A program made the position numbers and the translations under genes. A model generated the notes under the pieces. It searched no databases. It was not told where the DNA came from and saw nothing but the letters and a program-made list of their open reading frames with translations. A stretch of 64,000 nucleotides of DNA from a virus. Positions 1 through 59,932 of the stretch are shown piece by piece (the first letter of the stretch is position 1; each line of letters begins with the position of its first letter). The stretch spans positions 1 to 64,000 of the IMG/VR virus record IMGVR_UViG_3300029215_000002; one strand, 5' to 3'.

Positions 1-573
1 CATACCTCTCATACCGAAATCTGCACAAGCCATATTGCTAGATAATCCATCTGTTGTTTTGTCATACCAATAATCAGCAATCTTACGGTACATATAACCG
101 ACTGTCGCATGGCAACAAGGCTTCCACAACTCAACTTGAAGAAGGCATTCAATCCACTGAACAAGCCATGCAAATTTGTCATCTGTATTTGTAATTTCAA
201 TACAAGGAACACCCATTGGAACAAGCGTTCCTTCTGGTAATGCTCTAATTTTAAGTGGCAAATATCTTAATCTGTGAAGTTCTATAATCTTTGTTAAATC
301 ATAGTTACCCCAACCAATCTGTACATCCATTGATTCTGTGTAAATAGATATCATCTCATCTTCTGGTAAATCAAAGAATTCTTTCTGAAAATATTCTATT
401 AAATATTCTTTTATAAACGCTTGTAATCCAAAGAAAACCATTTTATTTTGATTTTCTAACATAGATTTTCGAGGCACCCAATATGAGACCAATTTAGTCA
501 ATCCCGTTGGATACATACGAGAATGACAAGCTTTATATGTATCTGATAATAATAAAGGCATTGTATTATTCAT
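1..573 (-). CDS. nadV: Nicotinamide phosphoribosyltransferase (NAMPT/NadV family), N-terminal part; the gene runs off the window start
   Basis: Translation from the ATG at 573 (minus strand) reads MNNTMPLLLSDTYKACHSRMYP...IRALPEGTLVPMGVPCIEITNTDDKFAWLVQWIECLLQVELWKPCCHATV...ADFGMRGM. It aligns along its length with human/bacterial NAMPT (DSYKVTHYKQYP; IKAVPEG; NWIETILVQSWYPITVATN; DFGYRG). GGAGG RBS upstream. No stop within the window. Confidence 0.8.
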   Translation of the reverse strand, partial: MNNTMPLLLSDTYKACHSRMYPTGLTKLVSYWVPRKSMLENQNKMVFFGLQAFIKEYLIEYFQKEFFDLPEDEMISIYTESMDVQIGWGNYDLTKIIELHRLRYLPLKIRALPEGTLVPMGVPCIEITNTDDKFAWLVQWIECLLQVELWKPCCHATVGYMYRKIADYWYDKTTDGLSSNMACADFGMRGM

Positions 574-579
574 AATTCT

Positions 580-1410
580 TTAAACCTCCATAACTGTAAT
601 TTTTTCATGACTGCCATTGAACAAACTATTTGTAGTGAACAACCTGTTCACTGTATTATTCTCTAAAGATTTGATTAATGTTCCCTTTTCTTTATCAAGA
701 ATTGAATTCTCTGTATGTGTAGCATATGCATAAATCTCAGTTACTCCATGTTTTTTCAATTCTTCTGCGCTATAGTATAGTGAACCACCATAGGCTATAA
801 TGTCATCGATCATTAATACAGCTTTATTACTCAAATCAATACCATTTGTTCTAATATCTAATCCAAGAATTTTACCAGTCTTCCAATCTCTTTTCTTTTC
901 ACCATAACACCATGGAAGTTCAGGAAATAAATCAGAATATTTTTTAGAAGCGCCACTATCTGGGAAATAAAGTACAAGATTTCTCATACCGATTTTAGAA
1001 ATTACCTTATCAACATACTTCTTTGGGTCTTCTTTAGCGCAATTATTAAGTAATGCTGTAGAAACATCGCTATGAGCATCTAAAACATAAACTTGCTGAA
1101 AATGAAGGTTATTAATTACTTCACAAAAATATTTTAATGTAAATACTTCACTAAAATCTTTTGTTCTATCCATTCTAGCATTTGGAATATATGGTAATTT
1201 CAAATATCCTTCTCTACCATGTTCATCCATCCATCTTTTAATCATTATTAGATACATTAATTCATCGTTACTTTCATATAACCAAGTTACGGTGTTATAT
1301 TTATTTTTTGAAAGTTTAGAAAAATCAATATTTATTCTTGGTGTTCCATCTGGAAATTTATTAATTTTAATTATATAATTATCAATTTTAATCATATTTT
1401 TATTCTCCAA
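580..1410 (-). CDS. Ribose-phosphate pyrophosphokinase (Prs)-like protein, 276 aa; possibly an ADP-ribose pyrophosphokinase (Adps-type)
   Basis: Prs family motifs: FPDGTPRINI (compare FSDGEVQINI), YIPNARMDRT (compare YYGYARQDRK), PRTase loop VLMIDDIIAYGGSL, IYAYATHTENS. About 40 aa shorter than canonical Prs. The ribose-5-phosphate loop DTAGT is replaced by AYGGS. Confidence 0.7.
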   Translation of the reverse strand: MENKNMIKIDNYIIKINKFPDGTPRINIDFSKLSKNKYNTVTWLYESNDELMYLIMIKRWMDEHGREGYLKLPYIPNARMDRTKDFSEVFTLKYFCEVINNLHFQQVYVLDAHSDVSTALLNNCAKEDPKKYVDKVISKIGMRNLVLYFPDSGASKKYSDLFPELPWCYGEKKRDWKTGKILGLDIRTNGIDLSNKAVLMIDDIIAYGGSLYYSAEELKKHGVTEIYAYATHTENSILDKEKGTLIKSLENNTVNRLFTTNSLFNGSHEKITVMEV

Positions 1411-2001: not shown

Positions 2002-2316
2002 CTATAATAGTTCTTCAATGCTCTTACTAACGGCTTCTCTAACAGCTTTTGTTCTTGCAAGTTTTTCTGCTAATTTATCACTTGTAATTTCAATAATTTT
2101 ATCTTTGTTATCCTCGAAAAAATCTTGAATATTATCATTAATCATATCTTTAATTTTTTGTGTATAATCGTAATTGGTTATATTTTTTCTGCCGACTAGT
2201 GCTTTTATACAATCATTTTTGATTGCGCCAGCTACTTGTTTCATAACATTATTTTCAATAGTTTGCTTGATTTTATCATCATCAATACTAATACCGAATT
2301 GTACGATATGTTCCAT
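2002..2316 (-). CDS. hypothetical protein (104 aa)
   Basis: ORF in the dominant minus-strand tiling; no recognisable motif. Confidence 0.45.
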   Translation of the reverse strand: MEHIVQFGISIDDDKIKQTIENNVMKQVAGAIKNDCIKALVGRKNITNYDYTQKIKDMINDNIQDFFEDNKDKIIEITSDKLAEKLARTKAVREAVSKSIEELL

Positions 2317-2353
2317 AAATTACCTCCTTTAAAAATTATGAATTCAACTACAC

Positions 2354-2914
2354 CTACAAAACTTCATCAACAATTCCATACTTGACTGCTTTATCAGAAT
2401 GAATATAAAAATTTTTCTTCTTTTCACGAATTTCCTTAATATCGTCTTTTGTGAGATTGGTTCTGTCGATCACATATTCTTCAATCTTTTTATTCAGCCA
2501 GTCTATTTCTTTTCTATCTTCAACCAAATCCTGATATTTACCACTTCTCCAACAACTCATCTGATGATACATAAATATTGAATGCTTATAACAATATCTC
2601 TTATGACCTGCTAAGAAAATTTTAAAAGCTGCACTCATTGCATATCCTGTGCAATATGTATAGATTGGAGTTTTACTATTGAGAATGACATCAATCAATC
2701 CCCACATATCATAAACAGATCCACCATACGAGTTGATATACAATTTAATTGGTTCACGCCTATAATCTTTCTCTTTTTTATCCTTTTCATCATCAGATTT
2801 AATCAATCGTAAAATATTCCATGTTATACTTCCAACCGATTCATTATCTATGTCGTCAGATAAAAATAATATCCTCTCATCTGTGTTTGCATATATATTA
2901 TCTTTTGAATTCAT
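2354..2914 (-). CDS. clpP: ClpP-like serine protease
   Basis: ClpP catalytic context: INSYGGSVYDMWGLID, the Ser in TGYAMSAAFKIF, the His in MYHQMS, and the Asp in the YGIVDEV tail. Resembles the ClpP Ser-His-Asp triad regions. Confidence 0.7.
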   Translation of the reverse strand: MNSKDNIYANTDERILFLSDDIDNESVGSITWNILRLIKSDDEKDKKEKDYRREPIKLYINSYGGSVYDMWGLIDVILNSKTPIYTYCTGYAMSAAFKIFLAGHKRYCYKHSIFMYHQMSCWRSGKYQDLVEDRKEIDWLNKKIEEYVIDRTNLTKDDIKEIREKKKNFYIHSDKAVKYGIVDEVL

Positions 2915-3181: not shown

Positions 3182-3534
3182 TAAAATTCTCCTTCTGTAT
3201 ATGGCTTATCCCAACACTTTTTACAATCATTTTCGCACGAAACTTTCTTACTCAAATTCCCAACGCAAAGAAAAGGGTGTCTTTTCCACATTGAAGCGTT
3301 CGGGAACATTTTTAGAAAATGCTCTTTTCTAGTTTCTACCTGATGTTCGTCGCTCCATTTCTGAACAATTTCTATCGCTTCATCGGGATATGTTCTTTCA
3401 AACACTTCACATGGCAAGTCGGTCTTGTTATTGTCATTACTAATCGGACAATCTTCACAAGCTATTTCGCAATTCTTAATCATTCTATTCTTTTCTTTAA
3501 AATAATTTTCTGTGTATCCGCAATCAACTTTCAT
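3181..3534 (-). CDS. hypothetical Cys-rich protein (117 aa)
   Basis: Multiple CxxC-like pairs (CEIACEDCP; CENDCKKC); no family assignment. Confidence 0.45.
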   Translation of the reverse strand: MKVDCGYTENYFKEKNRMIKNCEIACEDCPISNDNNKTDLPCEVFERTYPDEAIEIVQKWSDEHQVETRKEHFLKMFPNASMWKRHPFLCVGNLSKKVSCENDCKKCWDKPYTEGEF

Positions 3535-22087: not shown

Positions 22088-22117
22088 TTTCTTATTCTCC
22101 TTTCTTATTGTAAATAA

Positions 22118-22189
22118 CGGGGCTAATCGGATTCGAACCGATGAATGCAGAGATCAAAACCCTGTGCCTTACCACTTGGCGATAGCCCT
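22118..22189 (-). tRNA. tRNA-Gln: tRNA-Gln (anticodon UUG), 72 nt, no encoded CCA
   Basis: Hand-folded cloverleaf: acceptor AGGGCUA/UAGCCCC, D-arm GCCA-AGUGGUA-AGGC, anticodon stem CAGGG/CUCUG with loop UUUUGAU, T-arm AUCGG-UUCGAAU-CCGAU, discriminator G. Very similar to E. coli tRNA-Gln. Position 1:72 is an A·C mismatch. Confidence 0.8.
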
Positions 22190-22224
22190 ATATTTTGTGA
22201 TGAATTAACTCATCACAATTATTT

Positions 22225-35929: not shown

Positions 35930-36110
35930 ATAAAAAGTTATAATTATCTTATCTTTTATGTTTCATTCCTACTTCTATGAGTATGCTTTTGAGGGTTGCT
36001 TGCAACCCTCTACTTACAAGTTCTTGTACTCTCCATAGGCGTAAATTCCTGACTAACGAATCAGTACATATCTGTGATAACTTGATTGTGTTATACTACA
36101 GATTGTTTTA
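35930..36110 (-). ncRNA. Candidate omega-RNA (TnpB guide RNA scaffold) overlapping the 3' end of tnpB and the element's right end
   Basis: Position expected for omega-RNA. It contains a perfect hairpin GAGGGTTGC-tt-GCAACCCTC and further short hairpins (TACAAG-tt-CTTGTA; CTGAC..TCAG) immediately 3' of the tnpB stop. Confidence 0.35.
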
Positions 36111-37281
36111 AAATATTTTCTCCGTATTTTTTTAGATTTAAAGAAGCTTGATAATCTCTGTCAATTACATTTCCACATTCACATCTGTAAATACGGTCTG
36201 ATAAACTTAAATCTTTCTTGATTGTTCCACAACAACTACATAATTTAGAACTTGGAAAGAATCTGTCTACAATGATTACTGAAATATTATTCCAAACAGA
36301 CTTATATTCAATTTGTCGTCTAATTTCATAAAATCCTTGTTGTTGTACTGCTTTGGATAAATGCCTATTCTTCATCATTCCACTTACATTCAAATCTTCT
36401 AACACAATAAAACTTGGTTCTCGTTTTATAATCTCTGAAGTTATATGATGTATGTAGTTCTGACGAATGTTTGTTAGTCTATGATTTAATTTTAATAAAA
36501 GTTTTTCCTTTTTGATTACATTCTTTGTTTTACAGTAACTTTCTCCTTTCTTATTTTTTCCATATTTTCTTGATATAGAACGCTGTAATCTGCGTTTTTG
36601 TTTTTCTAACTTCTTAACTCTTTGTGTCTTGTTAATGTTTTGATATTTATTACCATCAGAACATATTGCTAAATCTTTAATTCCTAAATCAATTCCAATT
36701 CCTTCATTAGACGGATTTATAGTGGAATCTTCATACTCAATACCAACCGTAAAATACCAATTTATTCCATCATATTTGATACGAGGATTCGTGTACTTAC
36801 AATCTGTAGGTATTCTATTATGTTCTGCAAGTCTAATCCAATTTAACTTTTGTTTGCTTTTCTTCTTAGAATTAGCAAACCCCTCAACTTTTACATGAGT
36901 ATCAGAAAATTGAATCCTTACATTATCCTGATAGAAAGATGGCATTGAAAATTTACGGCTTTTAAACTTAGGGAATTTTGAATATCCTTTGAAAAATCTC
37001 TTATATGCGTTGCAAGCATCTTTAATTGCTTGTTTTGTTACATTATTAGAGATTTTATTTAACCAAGAATATTTATCAGTTTTCTTCAACTGTGTAAATT
37101 CTTTTCTCAAATCTCCATCAAATATGAACTTGCCACCATTTTTATGGTTTTCTTTTTCTCTACTTAAAGCCCAATTATAAGCAAATCTGGCAGTATTAGC
37201 ATATTGGAAAAGTTTAGTCTTTTGCTTGTTATTTGGAAGTAACATTACTCGAATTGTTTTTATCATCTTTTTCACCTCCAT
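36091..37281 (-). CDS. tnpB: TnpB (IS200/IS605/IS607-family OrfB RNA-guided endonuclease), intact, 396 aa
   Basis: RuvC-I GIDLGIKDLA, RuvC-II IVLEDLNVSGM, zinc finger CSCCG...CECG, RuvC-III DRDYQASLNL. Confidence 0.85.
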   Translation of the reverse strand: MEVKKMIKTIRVMLLPNNKQKTKLFQYANTARFAYNWALSREKENHKNGGKFIFDGDLRKEFTQLKKTDKYSWLNKISNNVTKQAIKDACNAYKRFFKGYSKFPKFKSRKFSMPSFYQDNVRIQFSDTHVKVEGFANSKKKSKQKLNWIRLAEHNRIPTDCKYTNPRIKYDGINWYFTVGIEYEDSTINPSNEGIGIDLGIKDLAICSDGNKYQNINKTQRVKKLEKQKRRLQRSISRKYGKNKKGESYCKTKNVIKKEKLLLKLNHRLTNIRQNYIHHITSEIIKREPSFIVLEDLNVSGMMKNRHLSKAVQQQGFYEIRRQIEYKSVWNNISVIIVDRFFPSSKLCSCCGTIKKDLSLSDRIYRCECGNVIDRDYQASLNLKKYGENILKQSVV

Positions 37282-52855: not shown

Positions 52856-53614
52856 TTAAAATAAATCATTCTTTTTTATTTCTTTAAGAACAACATCTCT
52901 GTTCTTCAAAGTAATTGTATATGGTATGCCTCCTCTATATCCAAATATTTTACCAGATTCACGCATTTTTCTGTTGTCTTCTGCTGTAAACCTCCTTCCA
53001 CTACTAACAACAGATCCAATTTCAAATAATTCAGAGTCAAGTTTCTCCTTTGCATTTGCCTCACTATCAGCCTCTATATTCCTTGTACATGTTTTAATCT
53101 CTTCTTCCTTAGTTGAACTATCAACATAAGTTTCTGAAATCTCAAATACATATACGTTATCATAAGCAGGAATACCTAATTCCCAACATACAATTTCTTT
53201 TGCTTCCGATTCTAAAATTCCTTGCAGGGCTACCCGAAAAGAAATTCTTTCATCCTTTGAAAGCTGTTCATACTTTTCCATTCTTTCTATTTCAAATGGA
53301 AATTCATAATCAACCACTCTGCCGCTATCATAAAGAGCATCAACAGTTGCATCATCACAAGTAAAAAATGAACCATCAGAACAAACAAACCAATTTGTCT
53401 TTCCCTTTCCCTCTACATCTTTTACAGTTGCGAAATCTTGATACATTTCTGTTGGACAATCAATCTCTCCAATGTATCTATACTGCAAATCTTCTTTCAG
53501 ACTTGCAACCCTTCTCCGTGAATCTTCCTCTATAGCAGAAAATAAATTCTGCCAATCTTTATTACTTAACGCCTCTAACTGTTCCATAATATTTGCCATA
53601 ATATCATCCTCCAT
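52856..53614 (-). CDS. hypothetical protein (252 aa)
   Basis: minus-strand ORF; GGAGGATG RBS; a conserved structured leader upstream. Confidence 0.5.
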   Translation of the reverse strand: MEDDIMANIMEQLEALSNKDWQNLFSAIEEDSRRRVASLKEDLQYRYIGEIDCPTEMYQDFATVKDVEGKGKTNWFVCSDGSFFTCDDATVDALYDSGRVVDYEFPFEIERMEKYEQLSKDERISFRVALQGILESEAKEIVCWELGIPAYDNVYVFEISETYVDSSTKEEEIKTCTRNIEADSEANAKEKLDSELFEIGSVVSSGRRFTAEDNRKMRESGKIFGYRGGIPYTITLKNRDVVLKEIKKNDLF

Positions 53615-53722
53615 TCAGATTTAGTTTGTCATCATCAGTCTACAAGTTACTATCTTGCATAGACCGCCTGTAATAAGGCGGTTTCGACTTAATTCTTTGT
53701 AATGAAATGCGAATTTAGTCTG

Positions 53723-53998: not shown

Positions 53999-54013
53999 TT
54001 AATCAGTTACTTT

Positions 54014-54304
54014 TTAATCTGCATAATACAACCCCCATTTTACTTCGACAACTTCCCAAGTCCATTCATATTCTCCATCGTAGGATGAAAGATATGCTGT
54101 ACCGTCATCACTAATTGTTAAATCAATTAAATCTTTATCTCCGTCATCTGCATTATTCACTTCTTCTTCATAAGTGTTTTGTGCATCCTTTTTGAGAAAT
54201 GTATAAGCATCATCCTCATTATCGAATATATCATGGCTTGCAATTTCCTTTTCGTGAACCGCATAACAAATTACTACATATTTTTTCATATTATCACCTC
54301 TCAC
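54014..54304 (-). CDS. hypothetical acidic protein (96 aa)
   Basis: minus-strand ORF. Confidence 0.4.
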   Translation of the reverse strand: MRGDNMKKYVVICYAVHEKEIASHDIFDNEDDAYTFLKKDAQNTYEEEVNNADDGDKDLIDLTISDDGTAYLSSYDGEYEWTWEVVEVKWGLYYAD

Positions 54305-54322
54305 TTTAAAATGTTGTTTTCC

Positions 54323-54595
54323 TTAGGCTGTCGCAGTTTCAAACATATGAAAACTATAACTAGACCCAATTCCAACTTCACCATTTTGTTCACCGATGAT
54401 TTCGCTTAATAAGTCAATCATTTCATTTTGACTTTTAGTTCCGTATAAAATATTTCTTGTACCTACCCATACAATGAAGTATTTATAACCCCAATAACAA
54501 TCATCACCATTGTCAAATACAGGTGGATCTGTAGTGAAATATACTTCACCGTTTAGTTTGTTAGCTAACTGTTTTAACTCCCTTTTTATTTTCAT
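54323..54595 (-). CDS. hypothetical protein (90 aa)
   Basis: minus-strand ORF. Confidence 0.4.
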   Translation of the reverse strand: MKIKRELKQLANKLNGEVYFTTDPPVFDNGDDCYWGYKYFIVWVGTRNILYGTKSQNEMIDLLSEIIGEQNGEVGIGSSYSFHMFETATA

Positions 54596-54617
54596 ATTAT
54601 TACCTCCAGTTTTATTT

Positions 54618-54884
54618 TTATAAGTTATTGTATATGTAATTACAAGTTTCGATTATCTTTTCTCTGTTCGCAGCTTCTCTTTTGCGTTGCATTGTTTCAA
54701 AATGCTTTTGAGAATGTATAATAGATTTGTATACATCTATTGCAATCTTTGTGACACTTAATGCTAATAATGTTATTGTTGCAAATAAAAGTCTTGTACC
54801 AACACCATAAGGCAAGAAAAAAGCAACTGCAAAAACAGTTGCTAAAATTAATTTCGCTTTTTTAGTTATGTATAAATGTTTCAT
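54618..54884 (-). CDS. two-TM membrane protein (88 aa)
   Basis: LILATVFAVAFFLPYGVGTRLLFATITLLALSV. Confidence 0.4.
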   Translation of the reverse strand: MKHLYITKKAKLILATVFAVAFFLPYGVGTRLLFATITLLALSVTKIAIDVYKSIIHSQKHFETMQRKREAANREKIIETCNYIYNNL

Positions 54885-54915
54885 AATATTCCCTCCTTAA
54901 TTTTAATTTCGTTTT

Positions 54916-55269
54916 TTAGTTCCAATAGTACCAATCAATAATATTATTGTTATTGTCTAATACAAGTTCTACAATTACTTCATCCCAGTTATCAGCTGTA
55001 AGGTAGAATGAGTCGTTGTAAATATACTCATTTCCCTTGCTATCTACAAAATGAATAGCTGGTTTATTGTTTATACACGCAATTGATTTAATTTTTGCGT
55101 GTTCGTAATGAATAGCTGTTTCCGTTGTAATTGTAGGCGTTGCGTCTGTAGGTGTTAATGATACACCTAGTACAGTTGTTAATGTTAAAATTGCAGTTGT
55201 TAAAAGTTTCTTAAACTTCATAATTAAAACCTCCGTTTCGTTTTTTTTAGGTATAAAAATAACAGCCAC
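54916..55269 (-). CDS. secreted protein with a signal peptide (117 aa)
   Basis: MKFKKLLTTAILTLTTVLGVSLTPTDA. Confidence 0.4.
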   Translation of the reverse strand: MAVIFIPKKNETEVLIMKFKKLLTTAILTLTTVLGVSLTPTDATPTITTETAIHYEHAKIKSIACINNKPAIHFVDSKGNEYIYNDSFYLTADNWDEVIVELVLDNNNNIIDWYYWN

Positions 55270-55307
55270 CGTTTTTGATGACTGTTGTTAGTTACTGTTT
55301 CGCTTAT

Positions 55308-55706
55308 TTATTTTTGTAAATATTTTTGAACAAACTTTGGAAGTTCATAATAATAGTAATCATATTCATCCTCAATTTGTTCATTCTGGATTTCTCTATA
55401 GCTAGACCATTCATCTATGGTAATTCCATATTCTTCGTATAACCATTCAGAAAATGATAACTTGCCTTCCGTATTAGGAGTTGGAATGGTTTCAAGCTCA
55501 AAGTCGGTTTCTTCGATACTAAACCAGTCCATTTCCCATTCTCCGTTTACCTTTTCGTAGATACTTAGGCATCCATTGCTTTCCCACGTACTTGTGGCGA
55601 TAGGATTACCGGTTTCGGTATTTACACCGTACCAAAAGCCATTTTTAAGTGTAAATCCGTGGTAATTAGCACTTTCAAAGTCTGCCATTTTCTTTAATTT
55701 AAGCAT
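55308..55706 (-). CDS. hypothetical protein (132 aa)
   Basis: minus-strand ORF; a conserved hairpin motif in the leader. Confidence 0.45.
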   Translation of the reverse strand: MLKLKKMADFESANYHGFTLKNGFWYGVNTETGNPIATSTWESNGCLSIYEKVNGEWEMDWFSIEETDFELETIPTPNTEGKLSFSEWLYEEYGITIDEWSSYREIQNEQIEDEYDYYYYELPKFVQKYLQK

Positions 55707-55864
55707 AATTGCCTCCTTATGTGAGAGTCCTCACCCCAAATATTTTTATACGCATTTGGGTTGCGTTAGTTATTATGTATGAATATTGGTTTCCCATTTA
55801 TATAAATGGTACTTACGGTGAGAACCACGAGAAGGTTTCCAACACTCCCACCATAAGGCAAAAA

Positions 55865-56074
55865 TTAATTTGCCTTTTCGTCATCATCATCTTTGTGACG
55901 GCGTAATGATACACCTTTTTTATTTATTATTACATCGTATTCACCGTCACAGAAATCTTTCATTAGCCCTTCTGTAATAATAGATAACGGTAAACCGTAA
56001 CTATTTTTACAACACTCTTTAAATTCTTCAAAGAGTGTTTCTTCTAGGCTTATATTTACATTTTTTGTTGCCAA
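55865..56074 (-). CDS. hypothetical protein (69 aa)
   Basis: minus-strand ORF. Confidence 0.35.
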   Translation of the reverse strand: MATKNVNISLEETLFEEFKECCKNSYGLPLSIITEGLMKDFCDGEYDVIINKKGVSLRRHKDDDDEKAN

Positions 56075-56252
56075 TTAGACCACATCCTTTCAATATGTTT
56101 TTCTATTATTTTAACACAGTTTTAAAATAGTGTCAAAATGTAAATTAAAAGTCTGTAATCCGACTCAGTATTTAAGCCGTTTTAAAAGTATTTTATTCAT
56201 TGGGATTCCTCCTAGCTAGTATTCGTTTTTTATTTTTATGACGCAAAATCTC

Positions 56253-56453
56253 TTATATTGTTACACCCTTTTCTTTTAAGCATAATAATAAAAAATTGAG
56301 TGTATCCAAGTTATGGTTTTTCATAGTTGTGTACACTTCATAGATGGCATCATAATCATCCTTAAAAGCTTTTCTGATACCGTTTAAAAGCATTTCATCT
56401 ATATTGTTGTTATCAATGTCACAATAAATTATGACAAATTTTTTAATTGACAT
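56253..56453 (-). CDS. hypothetical protein (66 aa)
   Basis: minus-strand ORF; AGGAGG RBS; both conserved leader motifs upstream. Confidence 0.4.
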   Translation of the reverse strand: MSIKKFVIIYCDIDNNNIDEMLLNGIRKAFKDDYDAIYEVYTTMKNHNLDTLNFLLLCLKEKGVTI

Positions 56454-56587
56454 AATAGCCTCCTTATAGGTAATTCTACCCCTTGCATATTTTTATACGC
56501 TTGCAAGTAGCGTTAATTTTTTTGGCTTGTCATCATCAGTACACAAGTAGCCAACTTGTATAGACTAGGCATAAAGCCTAGTTTCGA

Positions 56588-56806
56588 CTATTCGTCATCT
56601 TCTAACGGTGTTTCTTTATCAGGCACAATCATACCGTCAGAATTGATTGTTGCTGTACCTACTTCTAGCACAAGATTATTTCTTGCGTATTCAAGTGCAA
56701 GTTCGTGCGTTTCAAAAATGATGATGTGTTTTTCAGCTGGCATCATATCTAATACGCACTTTTCATATTTTATATATCCGTACACTTCTAGCCCACCTCC
56801 TTTCAT
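56588..56806 (-). CDS. hypothetical protein (72 aa)
   Basis: minus-strand ORF. Confidence 0.35.
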   Translation of the reverse strand: MKGGGLEVYGYIKYEKCVLDMMPAEKHIIIFETHELALEYARNNLVLEVGTATINSDGMIVPDKETPLEDDE

Positions 56807-56879
56807 TGGACTTTATATAAAAATACGCACTATAGTTATATTAATAAATAATACATATGGTGCGTAAATTATAGCAAAA

Positions 56880-57125
56880 TTAATTTAATTCAACCATTTT
56901 TACATCGTAACCAGCCTTAAATACGCAACCAATTTTTCCATTGTAAATACGCCCAATCCATTCTAGGCGTATTAACGGTTTGTCGTTGACTTCGAAGAAA
57001 ATATCTTCAGGTAATAACTTATGCAATCCATATTTTATAGCGTGTTTTGCACACGCTAACAACAAGCTGTCTGGTGTAGTGTCTGATGTTATGACGGTTA
57101 CTGGTAATCCTAAGCAAGTTACCAT
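56880..57125 (-). CDS. hypothetical protein (81 aa)
   Basis: minus-strand ORF. Confidence 0.4.
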   Translation of the reverse strand: MVTCLGLPVTVITSDTTPDSLLLACAKHAIKYGLHKLLPEDIFFEVNDKPLIRLEWIGRIYNGKIGCVFKAGYDVKMVELN

Positions 57126-57180
57126 TTAAAGCACCTCCAATTTTTTAAATAATATTTTTAAATAATTAACTAATAGGTAA

Positions 57181-57208
57181 TAAAAAAGGACTACTAAAAA
57201 GTAGTCCA
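57181..57208 (-). terminator. rho-independent terminator (GGACTACT-aaaaa-AGTAGTCC + U-run on the minus transcript)
   Basis: 8-bp stem with an A-run on the plus strand immediately 5' (U-run 3' on the minus strand). Confidence 0.5.
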
Positions 57209-57222
57209 TAGGTTTTATAATT

Positions 57223-57621
57223 TTAAATTATAAAACCTTCATCCGTCGGCTTGTGGTTAGGTGTAATGCTTTTAACCTTTTTGCGCCTGGTAATCGTGTC
57301 GTTGGAGTGCAAGGCATTGTATTCAGTTTGTGAATATTTTACCACGCAACTACCTTGTAATTTGTTTTTATCAATCAAAGGCTTGATGAAATAGTTGTAG
57401 TAACCAGCCACGCACTTATTATGTAGGTTGAGTGTTACCCATTTATTACCAATAAGCACTTTGATATTATTGTTTGTATAATCATCAATAAGCCAAACGG
57501 ACGCTTGATTGATATTGTTGTGCATAAGGTTAAATGCACCATAGCAAGCATTTTTTGAGAATGTATAGCCGTAAAGGTTAAATTGTTTCTTTACAATATT
57601 AAATTTTTTCATATTAAACAC
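57223..57621 (-). CDS. hypothetical protein (132 aa)
   Basis: minus-strand ORF. Confidence 0.45.
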   Translation of the reverse strand: MFNMKKFNIVKKQFNLYGYTFSKNACYGAFNLMHNNINQASVWLIDDYTNNNIKVLIGNKWVTLNLHNKCVAGYYNYFIKPLIDKNKLQGSCVVKYSQTEYNALHSNDTITRRKKVKSITPNHKPTDEGFII

Positions 57622-57669
57622 TCCTTTAGTCAGATTTTTATTAATACTATTAGTTAAAATTTATTGCAC

Positions 57670-57695
57670 TAAAAAAGGGACTATAAATAGTCCCT
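57670..57695 (-). terminator. rho-independent terminator (AGGGACTAT-aa-ATAGTCCCT + U-run on the minus transcript)
   Basis: 9-bp perfect stem preceded by AAAAAA on the plus strand. Confidence 0.5.
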
Positions 57696-57702
57696 TAATA
57701 GA

Positions 57703-58449
57703 TTAGATTTCATAAAGGTTGCTATCAACCTTAGTTTGTCTATCTTTTTTAGAGTACCCTACTCTTTCACCAACGGTTGAAAGAATGACCTGTTTTATTA
57801 ACTTATTTTTACTATTCAACACTTGCTTAATGCTAAGTGTTTCGTAGTTACGAACACCTTTAGCATTAAAAGTGCCGCTTTTTGTGAACGCAACTCTCAA
57901 GATATAATCAAGAGTATTTGTTCCTAAGTTTGTTAATTTAAAATTAGAGTTATCCCCTAATCTTTCGTTAACAAATGCCATTATGTCAGTCTTGATACTT
58001 TTAGTGTCTTCGGCTGTTTTGCTATTATTAACATAATAGCTATAACAATTTTGGACTAACTCAGTAGCCCCCTTGAAAGTGACAGCCTTTAAAGGCTTGT
58101 AGCTCCAAGCTAACATCTTAGTTACGCTGTCGGCATTTTGGAAGTTTTTATAACTTCCTTTGTATTTATTTTTTATTTCTTCAAGAACTTGAAGTTCTTC
58201 TTCAAGAACTTCAAGTTTTTCCTTGTCTGTACCGGTTTTATTTTTTTCATTAGTGATATTATTTTTTGTTTCACTAATTTTTAAAGCAAGCTCAAGAGCA
58301 AATAAGCCTTCCGCGGCTTGCTTAAATTCGACTTCGTATTGATTTTTAAGATTGTTTAAACCGACTTTTTTTTCGCCGATTGTAAACAACTTAAAGTCAA
58401 TAGTTGTGATTGTAGTTGTTTTTTCAGTTGTAGTTATTGTGTTTGCCAT
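57703..58449 (-). CDS. hypothetical protein (248 aa); first gene of the minus-strand block
   Basis: minus-strand ORF with an RBS AAAGGTGG; a T-rich N-terminus (TITTTEKTTTITT). Confidence 0.5.
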   Translation of the reverse strand: MANTITTTEKTTTITTIDFKLFTIGEKKVGLNNLKNQYEVEFKQAAEGLFALELALKISETKNNITNEKNKTGTDKEKLEVLEEELQVLEEIKNKYKGSYKNFQNADSVTKMLAWSYKPLKAVTFKGATELVQNCYSYYVNNSKTAEDTKSIKTDIMAFVNERLGDNSNFKLTNLGTNTLDYILRVAFTKSGTFNAKGVRNYETLSIKQVLNSKNKLIKQVILSTVGERVGYSKKDRQTKVDSNLYEI

Positions 58450-58559: not shown

Positions 58560-58813
58560 TCTTTTTAAAGTTATACAATATTGTACATCATTCTTTTTTC
58601 GTTAGTTCTCCTGTACAGAAGAACCCTTTTTTGTTTCTTTTATTTTATTTTTTCTATACAGAAGAAATAAAATAGAAAAAATTATGATATAACCTATTTT
58701 CAAAGTACACTAGTTTTTCAAAAAAAAACTAGAAAAAACAAAATATGTAATTTGTAAAAAAGAATTTAAAATTTGAATTGTAAAAAATCGACATTTTAAG
58801 ATAAACAACGCAC

Positions 58814-58842
58814 TTGACAAAATAAAAACAAAGTGATATACT
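58814..58842 (+). promoter_or_regulatory. near-consensus sigma-70 promoter (TTGACA, 17 nt spacer, TATACT)
   Basis: cacTTGACAaaataaaaacaaagtgaTATACTactaac. Confidence 0.55.
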
Positions 58843-58854
58843 ACTAACTGTAGT

Positions 58855-58882
58855 GAGCTAGTGCGTCAGTACTAGTTTTTTT
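58855..58882 (+). terminator. intrinsic terminator hairpin (CTAGTGC-gtca-GTACTAG + TTTTTTT) about 10 nt downstream of the predicted TSS
   Basis: 7-bp stem (one G·U pair) followed by a 7-T run. Confidence 0.45.
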
Positions 58883-58903
58883 ACAATATTTAATTTTTTT
58901 TGA

Positions 58904-58945
58904 GAGTACAGCCTGTTTTCAAAGAGTAGCTGTACTCTTTTTTAT
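58904..58945 (+). terminator. second intrinsic terminator (GAGTACAGC...GCTGTACTC + TTTTTT)
   Basis: 9-bp perfect stem with a long loop followed by a T-run. Confidence 0.45.
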
Positions 58946-59932
58946 TCCTTATTTACAATATCTATTATAACAGATGTAAAAACATCTGTCAACTACTTTT
59001 TAATATTTTTTCTTAAAAATTCGATAAAAATATTTTTACCTTATTTACCAGTAATAACCATATAAAAATTACTGGCTATCTTTTTAATTCCTTTATATCC
59101 TACCAAAATACTATAGTATAGTGTAAAATATTGTTTTACAGTCGTTTTGGGGATAACTGGGGGTGGCAAAAACCAGAATTTAAGCATCAAAATCACCTCT
59201 AGGTATAAGCTATTTCATCCACACACCAACTCAAAAATTTACCAATTTTCCTCCACAAAAATAATCTCTCAAATCCCCTATTTTACTAACAAAAATCACG
59301 CTTTTTACTTTCAAACCACTTATCGTACACCTTATCGTTCAAACCCTTGAAAAACAGTCTTTTCAATACTAAAAATTCATAAAAATAAATAATTACCAAT
59401 TCAGAAATAATACACTAAATCATCAAATAATAAAATAAAACAGTAATCAGAACGATAACACTTTTATGTCAAAATTATCCCAAAGTTTTTAGAAGAAATT
59501 ATCAAGCAATTTTATCTTTGATATATCAAGTTAAATCCAATTATTTCCATATACAATGCTGTTAATCACACAAAATTTAATACATTTACTACATATCACT
59601 ATACTAAAACCTATATATTTTTAAGTTATTTTAAAGAAATTTTCTTAATATTTTTAAAGAAAAATAAATTAATCCCAATTAACAACTATAGATTTTTTCT
59701 TAGATTTTAATATTACATTTCTATAACTCCCCTATTTCATGTTAAACAAATTTTAAATAAAACCTCTACAAAAAATAGACCCTTTGATAAGGGTTGGTCT
59801 TTCTGAAATTATGAGCAAAGCGAATAATAGAAGAAAGAATTTTGGGATAGATATAACTTCTTATATAAACCAATTATAAATAGAGAATATATAAGTGTAA
59901 TAAAATTATTTTATCTTAAAGGAGAGAGCATA

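Follow-up and report, generated by a model that had tools for sequence, protein, structure and literature searches.

The stretch of DNA that was analysed, hereafter called the window, comprises 64,000 nucleotides (positions 1 to 64,000 of the IMG/VR virus record IMGVR_UViG_3300029215_000002), with a G+C content of 30% and a strong strand skew. Among the proteins it encodes are Pol III alpha, a DnaG-DnaB primase-helicase, PcfJ, DUF6017 proteins and TnpB, the latter being adjoined by a RAGATH-18 RNA. Between 52 and 59 kb, small genes follow one another in series with terminator-like hairpins between them, nearly all genes of this part of the window lying on the minus strand. A consensus scan detected perfect sigma-70 promoters at 58992..58964 and 56136..56108 on the minus strand and at 58814..58842 on the plus strand, and the whole region looks early or accessory. 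Searches of PHROGs and Pfam with the neighbouring small proteins found nothing, and the comparison of positions 54000..58000 with the phage collection, by BLAST in both its near and its distant mode, returned no match. The close relatives of this DNA are IMG/VR contigs of 88-124 kb and contigs from human-gut metagenomes.

Two of the small minus-strand genes are of particular concern here. The first one, gene 56253..56453, codes for a 66-aa protein, starts at the ATG 56453..56451 and is preceded by a gene for a 65-aa protein that ends with the TAG stop codon 56590..56588. The second one, gene 55308..55706, starts at the ATG 55706..55704 and encodes an acidic 132-aa protein, with no fold assigned, whose record in nr reads "MAG TPA: hypothetical protein [Bacteriophage sp.]". 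Both genes are preceded by the same structured leader (copies A and B, respectively) and, in the case of copy A, a hammerhead ribozyme is located 49 nt upstream of the pseudoknot of this leader, hammerhead and leader forming together a 135-nt unit.

Two hammerhead ribozymes

The sequence GTCATCATCAGT occurs exactly twice in the window, at 53628..53639 and 56529..56540 in plus-strand coordinates, in agreement with the first-pass annotation, which had reported a second copy of this element in the leader of the 66-aa gene. Read on the coding strand, the repeat becomes ACUGAUGAUGAC, and what had been regarded as an anonymous conserved repeat represents, judging from its bases and their surroundings, the core (CUGAUGA) of a hammerhead ribozyme of type II. 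The corresponding Rfam model, RF02276, matches positions 56520..56589 (minus strand, copy A; 35.2 bits, E 6.5e-6) and 53620..53689 (minus strand, copy 2, upstream of gene 52856..53599; 32.1 bits, E 7.7e-4), both scores lying just below the gathering score of 37 bits and both E-values arising from small searches.

The conserved core of the hammerhead, defined in PMC3088659 as C3-A9, G12-A14, A15.1-U16.1 and H17, could be read directly in both copies (C3 U4 G5 A6 N7 G8 A9, G12 A13 A14, A15.1-U16.1 and H17), which share CUGAUGA, GAAA and the cleavage triplet GUC. The type II topology is also present, in the way that stems I (8-9 bp) and III (6-7 bp) are capped by loops and that stem II is short and open, being formed by GAC and GUC if an extra U is bulged. 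More precisely, copy A, on the minus strand, displays the GAA of G12-A14 at 56585..56583, A15.1 at 56582, stem III at 56582..56564, a predicted cleavage site between C56563 and U56562, stem I at 56562..56540, CUGAUGA at 56539..56533, the extra U at 56532, between A9 and G10.1, and a stem II made of GAC 56531..56529 and GUC 56588..56586. In addition, the UUGGCU of its loop I (56554..56549) is complementary over 6 bp to the AGCCAA of its tail (56527..56522, minus strand). Such a pseudoknot between loop I and the 3' tail is typical of type II hammerheads and critical for their fast cleavage (Perreault et al. 2011; PMC3088659). In copy 2, the same pairing is kept with another sequence and over 4 bp (UAGU/ACUA), and the two copies also covary in stem I and in stem III, the latter being CCGCC/GGCGG in copy 2. 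Among the relatives, the hammerhead of copy A is conserved, with wobble and compensatory changes in stem I, and the extra U after A9 is found in all of them as well as in both copies of the window.

Taken together, these features make the copy A hammerhead a new representative of a known class, from which it deviates slightly. It shares with RF02276 the CUGAUGA and GAAA cores, the GUC triplet, the capped stems I and III, the open stem II, the pseudoknot of 4-6 bp between loop I and the 3' tail, and a location between single small phage genes, in line with the hammerheads reported to flank single genes in prophages (PMC3088659), but it differs by its sub-threshold score, by the extra U and by its fusion to a conserved downstream leader. 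Since it begins inside the TAG stop codon of the 65-aa gene, copy A is presumably part of the transcript of that gene. Copy 2, for its part, has no pseudoknot leader downstream, and a regular-expression scan of the window detected no further hammerhead core.

A pseudoknot and a hairpin ahead of the start codon

The second element was noticed through the sequence GCGTATAAAAATAT, which occurs exactly twice in the window, both times on the minus strand, at 56487..56500 and 55740..55753. It is flanked by arms that are complementary and yet different in the two copies (CTTGCA/TGCAAG in copy A, CCCAAAT/ATTTGGG in copy B), and it is followed in both by GGGG(T) and later by TAAGGAGGC(T/A)ATTATG. These observations, namely an identical loop in two hairpins, differing but complementary stems, and the downstream strings GGG(G)U and TAAGGAGGC(A/U)AUUAUG, had all been made in the first-pass annotation and were found again here. 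Regarding the position of the hairpins, the interval 55734..55760 given for copy B is right, whereas 56463..56488 has to be replaced by 56482..56507 for copy A. A repeated 14-mer is in itself weak evidence in DNA with 30% G+C: when up to two mismatches are allowed, GCGTATAAAAATAT has 6 matches in the window, where 1.85 would be expected, and this number is attained in 2 of 100 shuffles. However, TAACGC is found exactly 9 nt upstream (counted from GCG) in both copies, a second hairpin of equal size follows at an equal position, and the distance from ACGC to the ATG amounts to 60 nt in both.

These features belong to one fold. Compared across ten versions, that is to say the two of the window and eight further diverged ones from gut phage and prophage contigs, element 2 emerges by covariation as an H-type pseudoknot with a second hairpin behind it that also covaries. 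The supposed conserved loop is thus composed of the 3' strand of helix P1 and of loop L3, its first five bases (NGCGU) pairing with the ACGCN situated nine bases upstream. In copy A (56482..56513, minus strand; 81.7 bits with the covariance model R1), P1 is formed by ACGCU 56513..56509 and AGCGU 56501..56497, L1 is A56508, P2 consists of CUUGCA 56507..56502 and UGCAAG 56487..56482, which is the stem already recognised in the first-pass annotation, and L3 is AUAAAAAUA (56496..56488). The hairpin P3 then occupies 56468..56481 (GGGUA, loop GAAU, UACCU) and is separated by 2 nt from the Shine-Dalgarno sequence AAGGAGG at 56465..56459. In copy B (55735..55766, minus strand; 78.2 bits with R1), the same parts are ACGCA 55766..55762 and UGCGU 55754..55750 for P1, A55761 for L1, CCCAAA 55760..55755 and UUUGGG 55740..55735 for P2, AUAAAAAUA 55749..55741 for L3, 55721..55734 for P3 (GUGAG, loop GACU, CUCAC) and 55718..55712 for the AAGGAGG. 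In the close relatives, P3 of copy A undergoes a U-A to U-G change (L003) and a G.U to G-C change (L004), while only 1 of 61 columns of the copy B leader is variable among 5 distinct relatives, versus 30 of 146 in the adjoining coding sequence. The search of the window with R1 yielded exactly these two copies in 64 kb, and no complementary copy of the loop, which could have acted as an antisense partner, was found in the window.

Over the ten versions, P1 (ACGCN/N'GCGU) combines four invariant pairs, which are neutral as evidence since they never vary, with a covarying fifth pair. L1 measures 1 nt in eight of the ten versions and at most 2 nt (L135), P2 counts 5-7 bp and covaries fully, its six pairs all changing on both sides, and L2 is absent in most versions and never exceeds 2 nt (L246a). 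L3 follows the pattern AUA(U)NAAAUR and reads AUAAAAAUA, AUAUUAAAUA or AUAUCAAAUA depending on the version, the exact loop sequence shared by the two window copies being therefore not general. P3 starts 0-3 nt after the pseudoknot and has 4-5 bp, all 5 pairs changing on both sides, usually with a tetraloop. The Shine-Dalgarno sequence comes 2-4 nt after the end of P3, which places it behind P3 and 16-20 nt past P2, and ACGC is located 59-64 nt from the AUG in all 12 sequences measured. Because of this fixed distance and of the close vicinity of P3 and the Shine-Dalgarno sequence, the element is tied to the translation initiation region.

The statistical support for the fold was evaluated with R1, built from 15 sequences, the pairs being counted on the model-based alignment (A3) of 17 distinct sequences. 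Standard pairs fill 94.9% of the pair cells, versus 73.5% in shuffles and 30-54% when the partners are slid, 12 of the 16 pairs show changes on both sides, and the covariation score is reached by none of 500 shuffles. Furthermore, the cells with G.U outnumber those with A.C by 17 to 2, so that the strand that folds is the sense strand, the mRNA. The covarying stem noticed in the first-pass annotation is thereby supported as real and as a mark of selection on a folded single strand, and the protein binding suggested there is possible. Taken alone, P1 and P2 are each worth about -3 to -8 kcal/mol, a few P2 and P3 values coming out positive at places where the model alignment has slipped out of register. 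P1 and P2 are mutually exclusive as long as they are folded as nested structures, and they can hence coexist only as a pseudoknot; likewise, lengths confined to 1-2 nt for L1 and to 0-2 nt for L2 are understandable only for helices stacked within a single knot. In the classical H-type geometry, the deep groove of a stem of 6-7 bp is spanned by one nucleotide and L2 is missing.

With regard to known families, Rfam 15 contains no match to the pseudoknot and hairpin: scans at E<=10 of 201 and 211 nt around the two copies returned the hammerhead and noise only, and in the eight related loci no match fell on the motif positions at E<=0.5. While a cis-acting leader pseudoknot is a kind of element already known, no description of this sequence family, or of its fusion to a self-cleaving ribozyme as a portable block, was found as far as could be searched. 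The motif may nevertheless stand unnamed in uncurated catalogues of structured phage RNAs such as that of PMC10690425.

Diverged versions and their surroundings

Scans of viral and metagenome contigs for the exact loop returned only members of one close clade, all with the two stem versions of the window, besides some chance matches, and brought no new covariation. The diverged versions were reached in another way. Homologues of the 132-aa protein with 50-65% identity were located by protein similarity, not by structure, and the regions upstream of those from L135, L140, L143 and L144 are built on the same architecture and differ in the sequences of P2 and P3. A scan of viral contigs for the pattern of shared bases then added L166/L184/L185, and L246, a mouse-gut Eubacteriales MAG, turned out to hold three copies of the motif within 3.5 kb, being the only genuine case among the genome-scan matches listed. 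A relaxed pattern scan of the viral contigs gave no new version among the matches listed, and the weak R1 matches of L157, L231, L167, L199 and L206 (17-26 bits) were not counted as members.

In seven of the ten versions, the gene that stands behind the motif is a member of the acidic 132-aa family; the motif also precedes the genes of the 66-aa protein, of two Cys-rich peptides (L002 and L246a) and of an 89-aa protein (L246b). In L002, the hammerhead and the leader are kept exactly, amid an upstream gene and a directly downstream gene that are both different, and the unit is thus portable. The pseudoknot is however not indispensable, since an intact gene of L138/139 is preceded by the 3' half of the motif only and L142 has no leader.

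What lies upstream of the motif varies as well, and is frequently a feature that generates 5' ends of RNA, be it a hammerhead, a hairpin or a promoter. In two of the L246 copies, a near-perfect hairpin of 25 bp (z about -8.3), which looks like an RNase III site, abuts the motif. In L140, a TTGACA-17-TATTCT sigma-70 promoter ends 23 nt upstream of ACGC, and the motif consequently sits in the transcribed leader. L246b has an extended -10 upstream of the motif, and weaker or hand-read promoter candidates precede it in L135 and L143. In L166/184/185, the motif begins about 10 nt past the upstream stop codon, and neither a processing site nor a promoter is evident there. In L246, a pistol ribozyme (61.1 bits) is also found just past the first motif-led gene, within 200 nt of a motif copy. 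The window and the L246 loci are ribozyme-rich neighbourhoods of the kind treated in PMC6765202, as are those of the RAGATH RNAs and pistol, found near hammerhead- and twister-associated genes, the window having two hammerheads and a RAGATH-18 RNA and L246 its pistol. Yet none of the RAGATH, pistol, hatchet and twister models of Rfam 15 matches the pseudoknot and hairpin.

At copies A and B themselves, neither the consensus scan nor a second scan, which covered 140 nt upstream and 30 nt into the motif, detected a sigma-70 promoter with its -35 box at 16-18 nt upstream of a TATAAT-like -10 hexamer. Several promoter types were considered and set aside. The resemblance to the T4-type late promoter, whose TATAAATA box stands at -10 before many late genes, was not supported: the box is TATAAAAATA in the window, with only two copies in 64 kb, it reads TATATTAAAT or TATATCAAAT in other versions, and the genes concerned are in an early-looking region beside perfect sigma-70 promoters. 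By eye, none of the spacings of sigma-70, ECF-type (AAC...CGTATA) and SPO1 late (CGTTAGA...GATATT) promoters suited the two copies alike. An integron attC-like DNA hairpin was discarded, its core sites not fitting and the folded strand being the sense strand.

Possible roles of the leader

The fold, its strand, its constant place ahead of the start codon and its portability being established by the above data, the function of the element is what we infer from them. The reading that we favour, with a probability of about 40%, is that of a two-part RNA module acting on the mRNA, in which the hammerhead would free the cistron while the pseudoknot and hairpin would guard and insulate the ribosome-binding site. 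The region would be co-transcribed with the upstream 65-aa gene, because the hammerhead starts in the stop codon of this gene and no sigma-70-type promoter lies between them. The hammerhead, in view of its consensus core, its three stems and its pseudoknot between loop I and the tail, is predicted to fold and to cleave itself between C56563 and U56562, which would separate the two cistrons and leave the downstream RNA with a 5'-OH. This RNA would then adopt the fold shown by covariation, with the pseudoknot (a 5-bp P1, a 1-nt L1, a 6-bp P2, an A-rich L3 of 9 nt and no L2), then P3 and a free Shine-Dalgarno sequence. Such a rigid stack, 59-64 nt before the AUG, most likely represents a boundary element, which would halt 5'-to-3' decay starting at the new end and protect the ribosome-binding site from pairing with upstream sequence, the cistron being thereby expressed alike wherever the module lands. 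The invariant P1 (ACGC/GCGU) and L3 (AUA..AAAU) might be explained by a minor-groove triplex that makes the knot robust, through putative contacts of L3 in the P1 minor groove, or might additionally offer a docking face to a factor. Copy B and the eight further versions display the same pseudoknot and hairpin, which in place of the hammerhead are preceded by a promoter, by a hairpin of 25 bp or by an upstream gene.

The order of the parts in copy A is reminiscent of the insulators of the RiboJ type, reportedly described by Lou et al. in 2012 as an engineered self-cleaving ribozyme with a hairpin just upstream of the ribosome-binding site. In both cases, a ribozyme is followed by a stable structure and by an exposed ribosome-binding site, the upstream context being cut away, and the natural module keeps its sequence while the flanking genes change, as seen in L002. 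However, the engineered element has a plain hairpin, whereas the natural one has a sequence-conserved pseudoknot with a hairpin and is often present without a ribozyme. Several observations were counted against the favoured reading: both hammerheads score below the gathering threshold and have the extra U between A9 and G10.1, the motif of L166/184/185 comes soon after a stop codon and lacks an evident processing site or promoter, the pseudoknot is dispensable in L138/139 and L142, and the copy 2 hammerhead has no pseudoknot downstream. Besides, a passive barrier has no obvious need for four invariant P1 pairs and for AUA..AAAU, given that P2 and P3 are equally structural and yet free to change, which points to specific recognition.

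The main rival of this reading is accordingly an operator for a trans-acting factor, in which a protein of the phage or the host, the ribosome or RNA polymerase would read the face formed by P1 and L3 and repress or activate initiation; we regard it as possible, but doubtful. The best argument in its favour is the invariance of P1 and L3 at a time when P2, P3 and the proteins diverge, the latter to 50-60% identity, and the fixed distance to the AUG goes in the same direction. Moreover, the motif precedes several different small genes per genome (two in the window and three in L246), which has the look of a small regulon, and the location of seven of the ten versions before homologues of one protein family is the pattern expected of autoregulated leaders. 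The absence of a candidate binder is, conversely, the best argument against an operator. A phage precedent exists in the leader of gene 32 of T2, T4 and T6, which is autoregulatory, gp32 binding the leader of its own mRNA, and whose pseudoknot has coaxially stacked stems and a single-nucleotide loop 1 that spans a stem 2 of 6-7 bp. This pseudoknot regulates translation, as cited in a passage of PMC10690425. Like the present one, it belongs to the classical H-type, is located in the 5' leader of an mRNA of a phage and has a loop 1 of 1 nt. The two differ in that they have no sequence similarity, in what stands between knot and start codon, namely a hairpin here and an unstructured A/U-rich tract in gene 32, and in their downstream genes, gene 32 coding for a protein that binds single-stranded DNA, whereas the present motif stands before the acidic 132-aa protein and before unrelated genes as well.

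A narrower version of the protective role is that the pseudoknot is an exoribonuclease-resistant structure, namely the bacterial or phage counterpart of the flavivirus xrRNAs, which would halt RNase J1-type 5'-to-3' decay starting from the 5'-OH left by a hammerhead or pistol ribozyme, or from an RNase III cut. RNase J1 has a role in the decay of the 5'-OH products of the glmS ribozyme. In Bacillota, these products are degraded by cellular RNases, according to work cited in a passage of PMC6765202. We consider this counterpart of the xrRNAs unlikely.

Still less probable is the original picture of the first-pass annotation, a plain hairpin with a sequence-specific loop of 12-14 nt and no P1 pairing. 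It is indeed the minimum-energy structure that RNAfold predicts for copy B, and four of the five P1 pairs, being invariant, bring no covariation evidence. Against this, the fifth P1 pair exists as four types (UA 8, AU 4, UG 3 and CG 2) with zero mismatches in the 17 distinct sequences, ACGC is conserved at a fixed 9-10 nt, and the lengths of L1 (1-2 nt) and L2 (0-2 nt) matter only if both helices form together.

Nor does a small-molecule riboswitch with an H-type aptamer like that of preQ1-I (RF00522) appear at all likely. The likeness lies in the size, an H-type knot of about 35 nt whose topology is given here by covariation, in the 5-bp P1, in the invariance of the core nucleotides and in the A-rich L3 (AUAAAAAUA), which begins with AUAAAAA as in the Bacillus subtilis preQ1-I aptamer. 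When set against the preQ1-I fold features described in PMC11625349, where an unpaired UC or AC holding the specificity cytosine directly precedes the 3' strand of P1, the motif has no unpaired L2 in most versions (2 nt at most) and no conserved C at this place, and its P2 counts 6-7 bp versus 3-4 bp. In addition, the junction pair covaries freely, the Shine-Dalgarno sequence is outside the knot, and thus outside P2, with no conserved alternative pairing seen that would hide it, no Rfam match was obtained at E<=10, and among the small phage ORFs downstream neither a metabolic theme nor queuosine genes are seen. The preQ1-I aptamer was rejected as a candidate on account of the lacking L2 and specificity cytosine, the free covariation of the junction and the location of the Shine-Dalgarno sequence.

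That the pseudoknot and hairpin constitute a new class of self-cleaving ribozyme seems highly improbable. The motif adjoins a hammerhead in the window and is no more than 200 nt away from the pistol ribozyme of L246 (61.1 bits), pistol is likewise a pseudoknot of roughly 50 nt with hairpins in such neighbourhoods, motifs near such ribozymes have earlier proved to be ribozymes themselves (PMC6765202), and the core is invariant. Nevertheless, the constant spacing from the start codon and the Shine-Dalgarno sequence directly adjoining the motif point to translation, a second ribozyme 49 nt past the hammerhead would be redundant, and the plain H-type fold provides no internal loops for an active site. 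Finally, an element that would act on DNA, be it a promoter box (TATAAAAATA) of a phage-specific or T4-late type, a hairpin or a recombination site, is hardly tenable: its AT-rich, TATA-like core just upstream of genes and the fixed spacing of TAACGC and GCGTATA are outweighed by the lack of a -35 box at 16-18 nt, the variation of the box (TATATTAAAT, TATATCAAAT), the good sigma-70 promoter upstream of the motif in L140, the presence of only two copies in 64 kb, and compensatory changes and a 17:2 G.U asymmetry that fit a folded sense strand rather than a duplex site.

Whichever role applies, the leader is a defined RNA motif of about 50 nt with strong covariation that stands outside every curated family. 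In copy A, a hammerhead, a second RNA structure with good support and a ribosome-binding site are physically joined in a unit that remains intact while the neighbouring genes are exchanged. The favoured two-part module translates into a testable hypothesis, in which cleavage would be followed by a protective or recognised knot and then by context-independent translation, and the open question of what ribozymes are for in phages thereby becomes a simple set of experiments. If the pseudoknot turned out to resist exoribonucleases in the manner of an xrRNA, ribozyme and knot would together make up a natural "cut and cap" cassette, and would supply the missing rationale for the self-cleaving ribozymes located between small genes of Bacillota phages and prophages. 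If it is resistant to nucleases, or bound by a protein or a ligand, the leader would also represent a compact natural part for the control of gene expression in Gram-positive hosts.

Genes and RNA elements between the two pseudoknot leaders

Downstream of the 66-aa gene, whose leader carries the first copy of the pseudoknot motif, an 11-codon ORF (MNKILLKRLKY; 56165..56200, minus strand) is preceded by a strong AGGAGG. In relatives this start codon belongs to a more extended gene (114 aa in the related contig L141), so the window has a deletion in the stretch from the 66-aa gene to the sigma-70 promoter at 56136..56108. Further on, a 69-aa protein gene (55865..56074, minus strand) lies between the two leader-bearing genes and has its own promoter, a perfect TTGACA-17-TAAAAT. 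Judged from its sequence, the encoded protein (KNVNISLEETLFEEFKECCK...) reads like a ribbon-helix-helix DNA-binding protein, and a Pfam search returned no match for it. Small HTH genes occupy similar positions in the related contigs L140 and L246.

Between the terminator-like hairpin that follows the 69-aa gene and copy B of the pseudoknot, a conserved structured RNA is found at 55769..55852 (minus strand), for which Rfam gave no match. Compared to the related contig L001, its hairpin changes from CCAUUUAUAUAAAUGG in the window to CCUUUACAUAAAGG, both pairing partners being deleted, and a U-A pair of its outer stem becomes U-G; besides, a possible long-range UGUUGG/CCAAUA pairing is retained as G.U in L001. 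This RNA is placed relative to copy B as the hammerhead is relative to copy A.

Promoters upstream of the leaders

Ahead of the 65-aa gene, the minus strand presents, in this order (56824..56876), an extended -10 promoter TGcTATAAT (56876..56868), a long hairpin UACGCAC...GUGCGUA immediately 3' of it (56866..56824), and then AUUUUUAUAUAAA. In sequence, the hairpin stem and the AUUUUUAUAUAAA tail are similar to the motif's P1 and L3 if U is substituted for A; R1, the covariance model of knot and hairpin, did not detect this region. Further upstream, a 550-nt intergenic region containing several hairpins harbours two divergent perfect sigma-70 promoters (58793..58992; minus strand, TTGACA-17-TATAAT; plus strand, TTGACA-17-TATACT) and is probably an early control region where the direction of transcription switches.

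A TnpB-associated RNA and a tRNA gene

A RAGATH-18 RNA (35966..36039, minus strand; 65.3 bits, above gathering) lies directly 3' of a TnpB/OrfB_IS605 gene (36091..37281, minus strand), which encodes a Cas12f-like TNB domain. IS607 TnpB nucleases are reported to use RAGATH-18-derived reRNAs as guides (PMC11061315); the window shows the same gene-RNA arrangement, here within a phage genome. In addition, a tRNA-Gln (UUG) gene (22117..22190, minus strand) sits inside the phage gene array.

Leader neighbourhood in related contigs

In L246, a mouse-gut Eubacteriales MAG, two of the three pseudoknot leaders share a near-perfect hairpin of 25 bp immediately in front of them, which may be an RNase III site (262..326: -28.6 kcal/mol, z about -8.3; 3455..3519: -29.2 kcal/mol, z about -8.7). 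The first motif-led gene there, a Cys-rich mini-gene, has a pistol ribozyme behind it (526..599; 61.1 bits). The contig IMGVR_UViG_3300023504_000391 carries a hammerhead-plus-leader block identical to that of the window (2149..2400) behind an unrelated upstream gene, and a Cys-rich peptide gene of ~47 aa (MMACEIFMCKEYKISCMSCENTGC...) has been inserted after the leader, ahead of the 66-aa gene. The inserted gene has taken over the leader of the 66-aa gene.

Finally, a shortened leader is present in two further contigs (L138, 2938..3000; L139, 1205..1267), which keeps the P1 3' strand, L3, the P2 3' arm, P3, and the Shine-Dalgarno and lacks the 5' strands of P1 and P2. A 15-codon ORF runs into this shortened version, which, taken together, suggests a recombination breakpoint within the pseudoknot motif.
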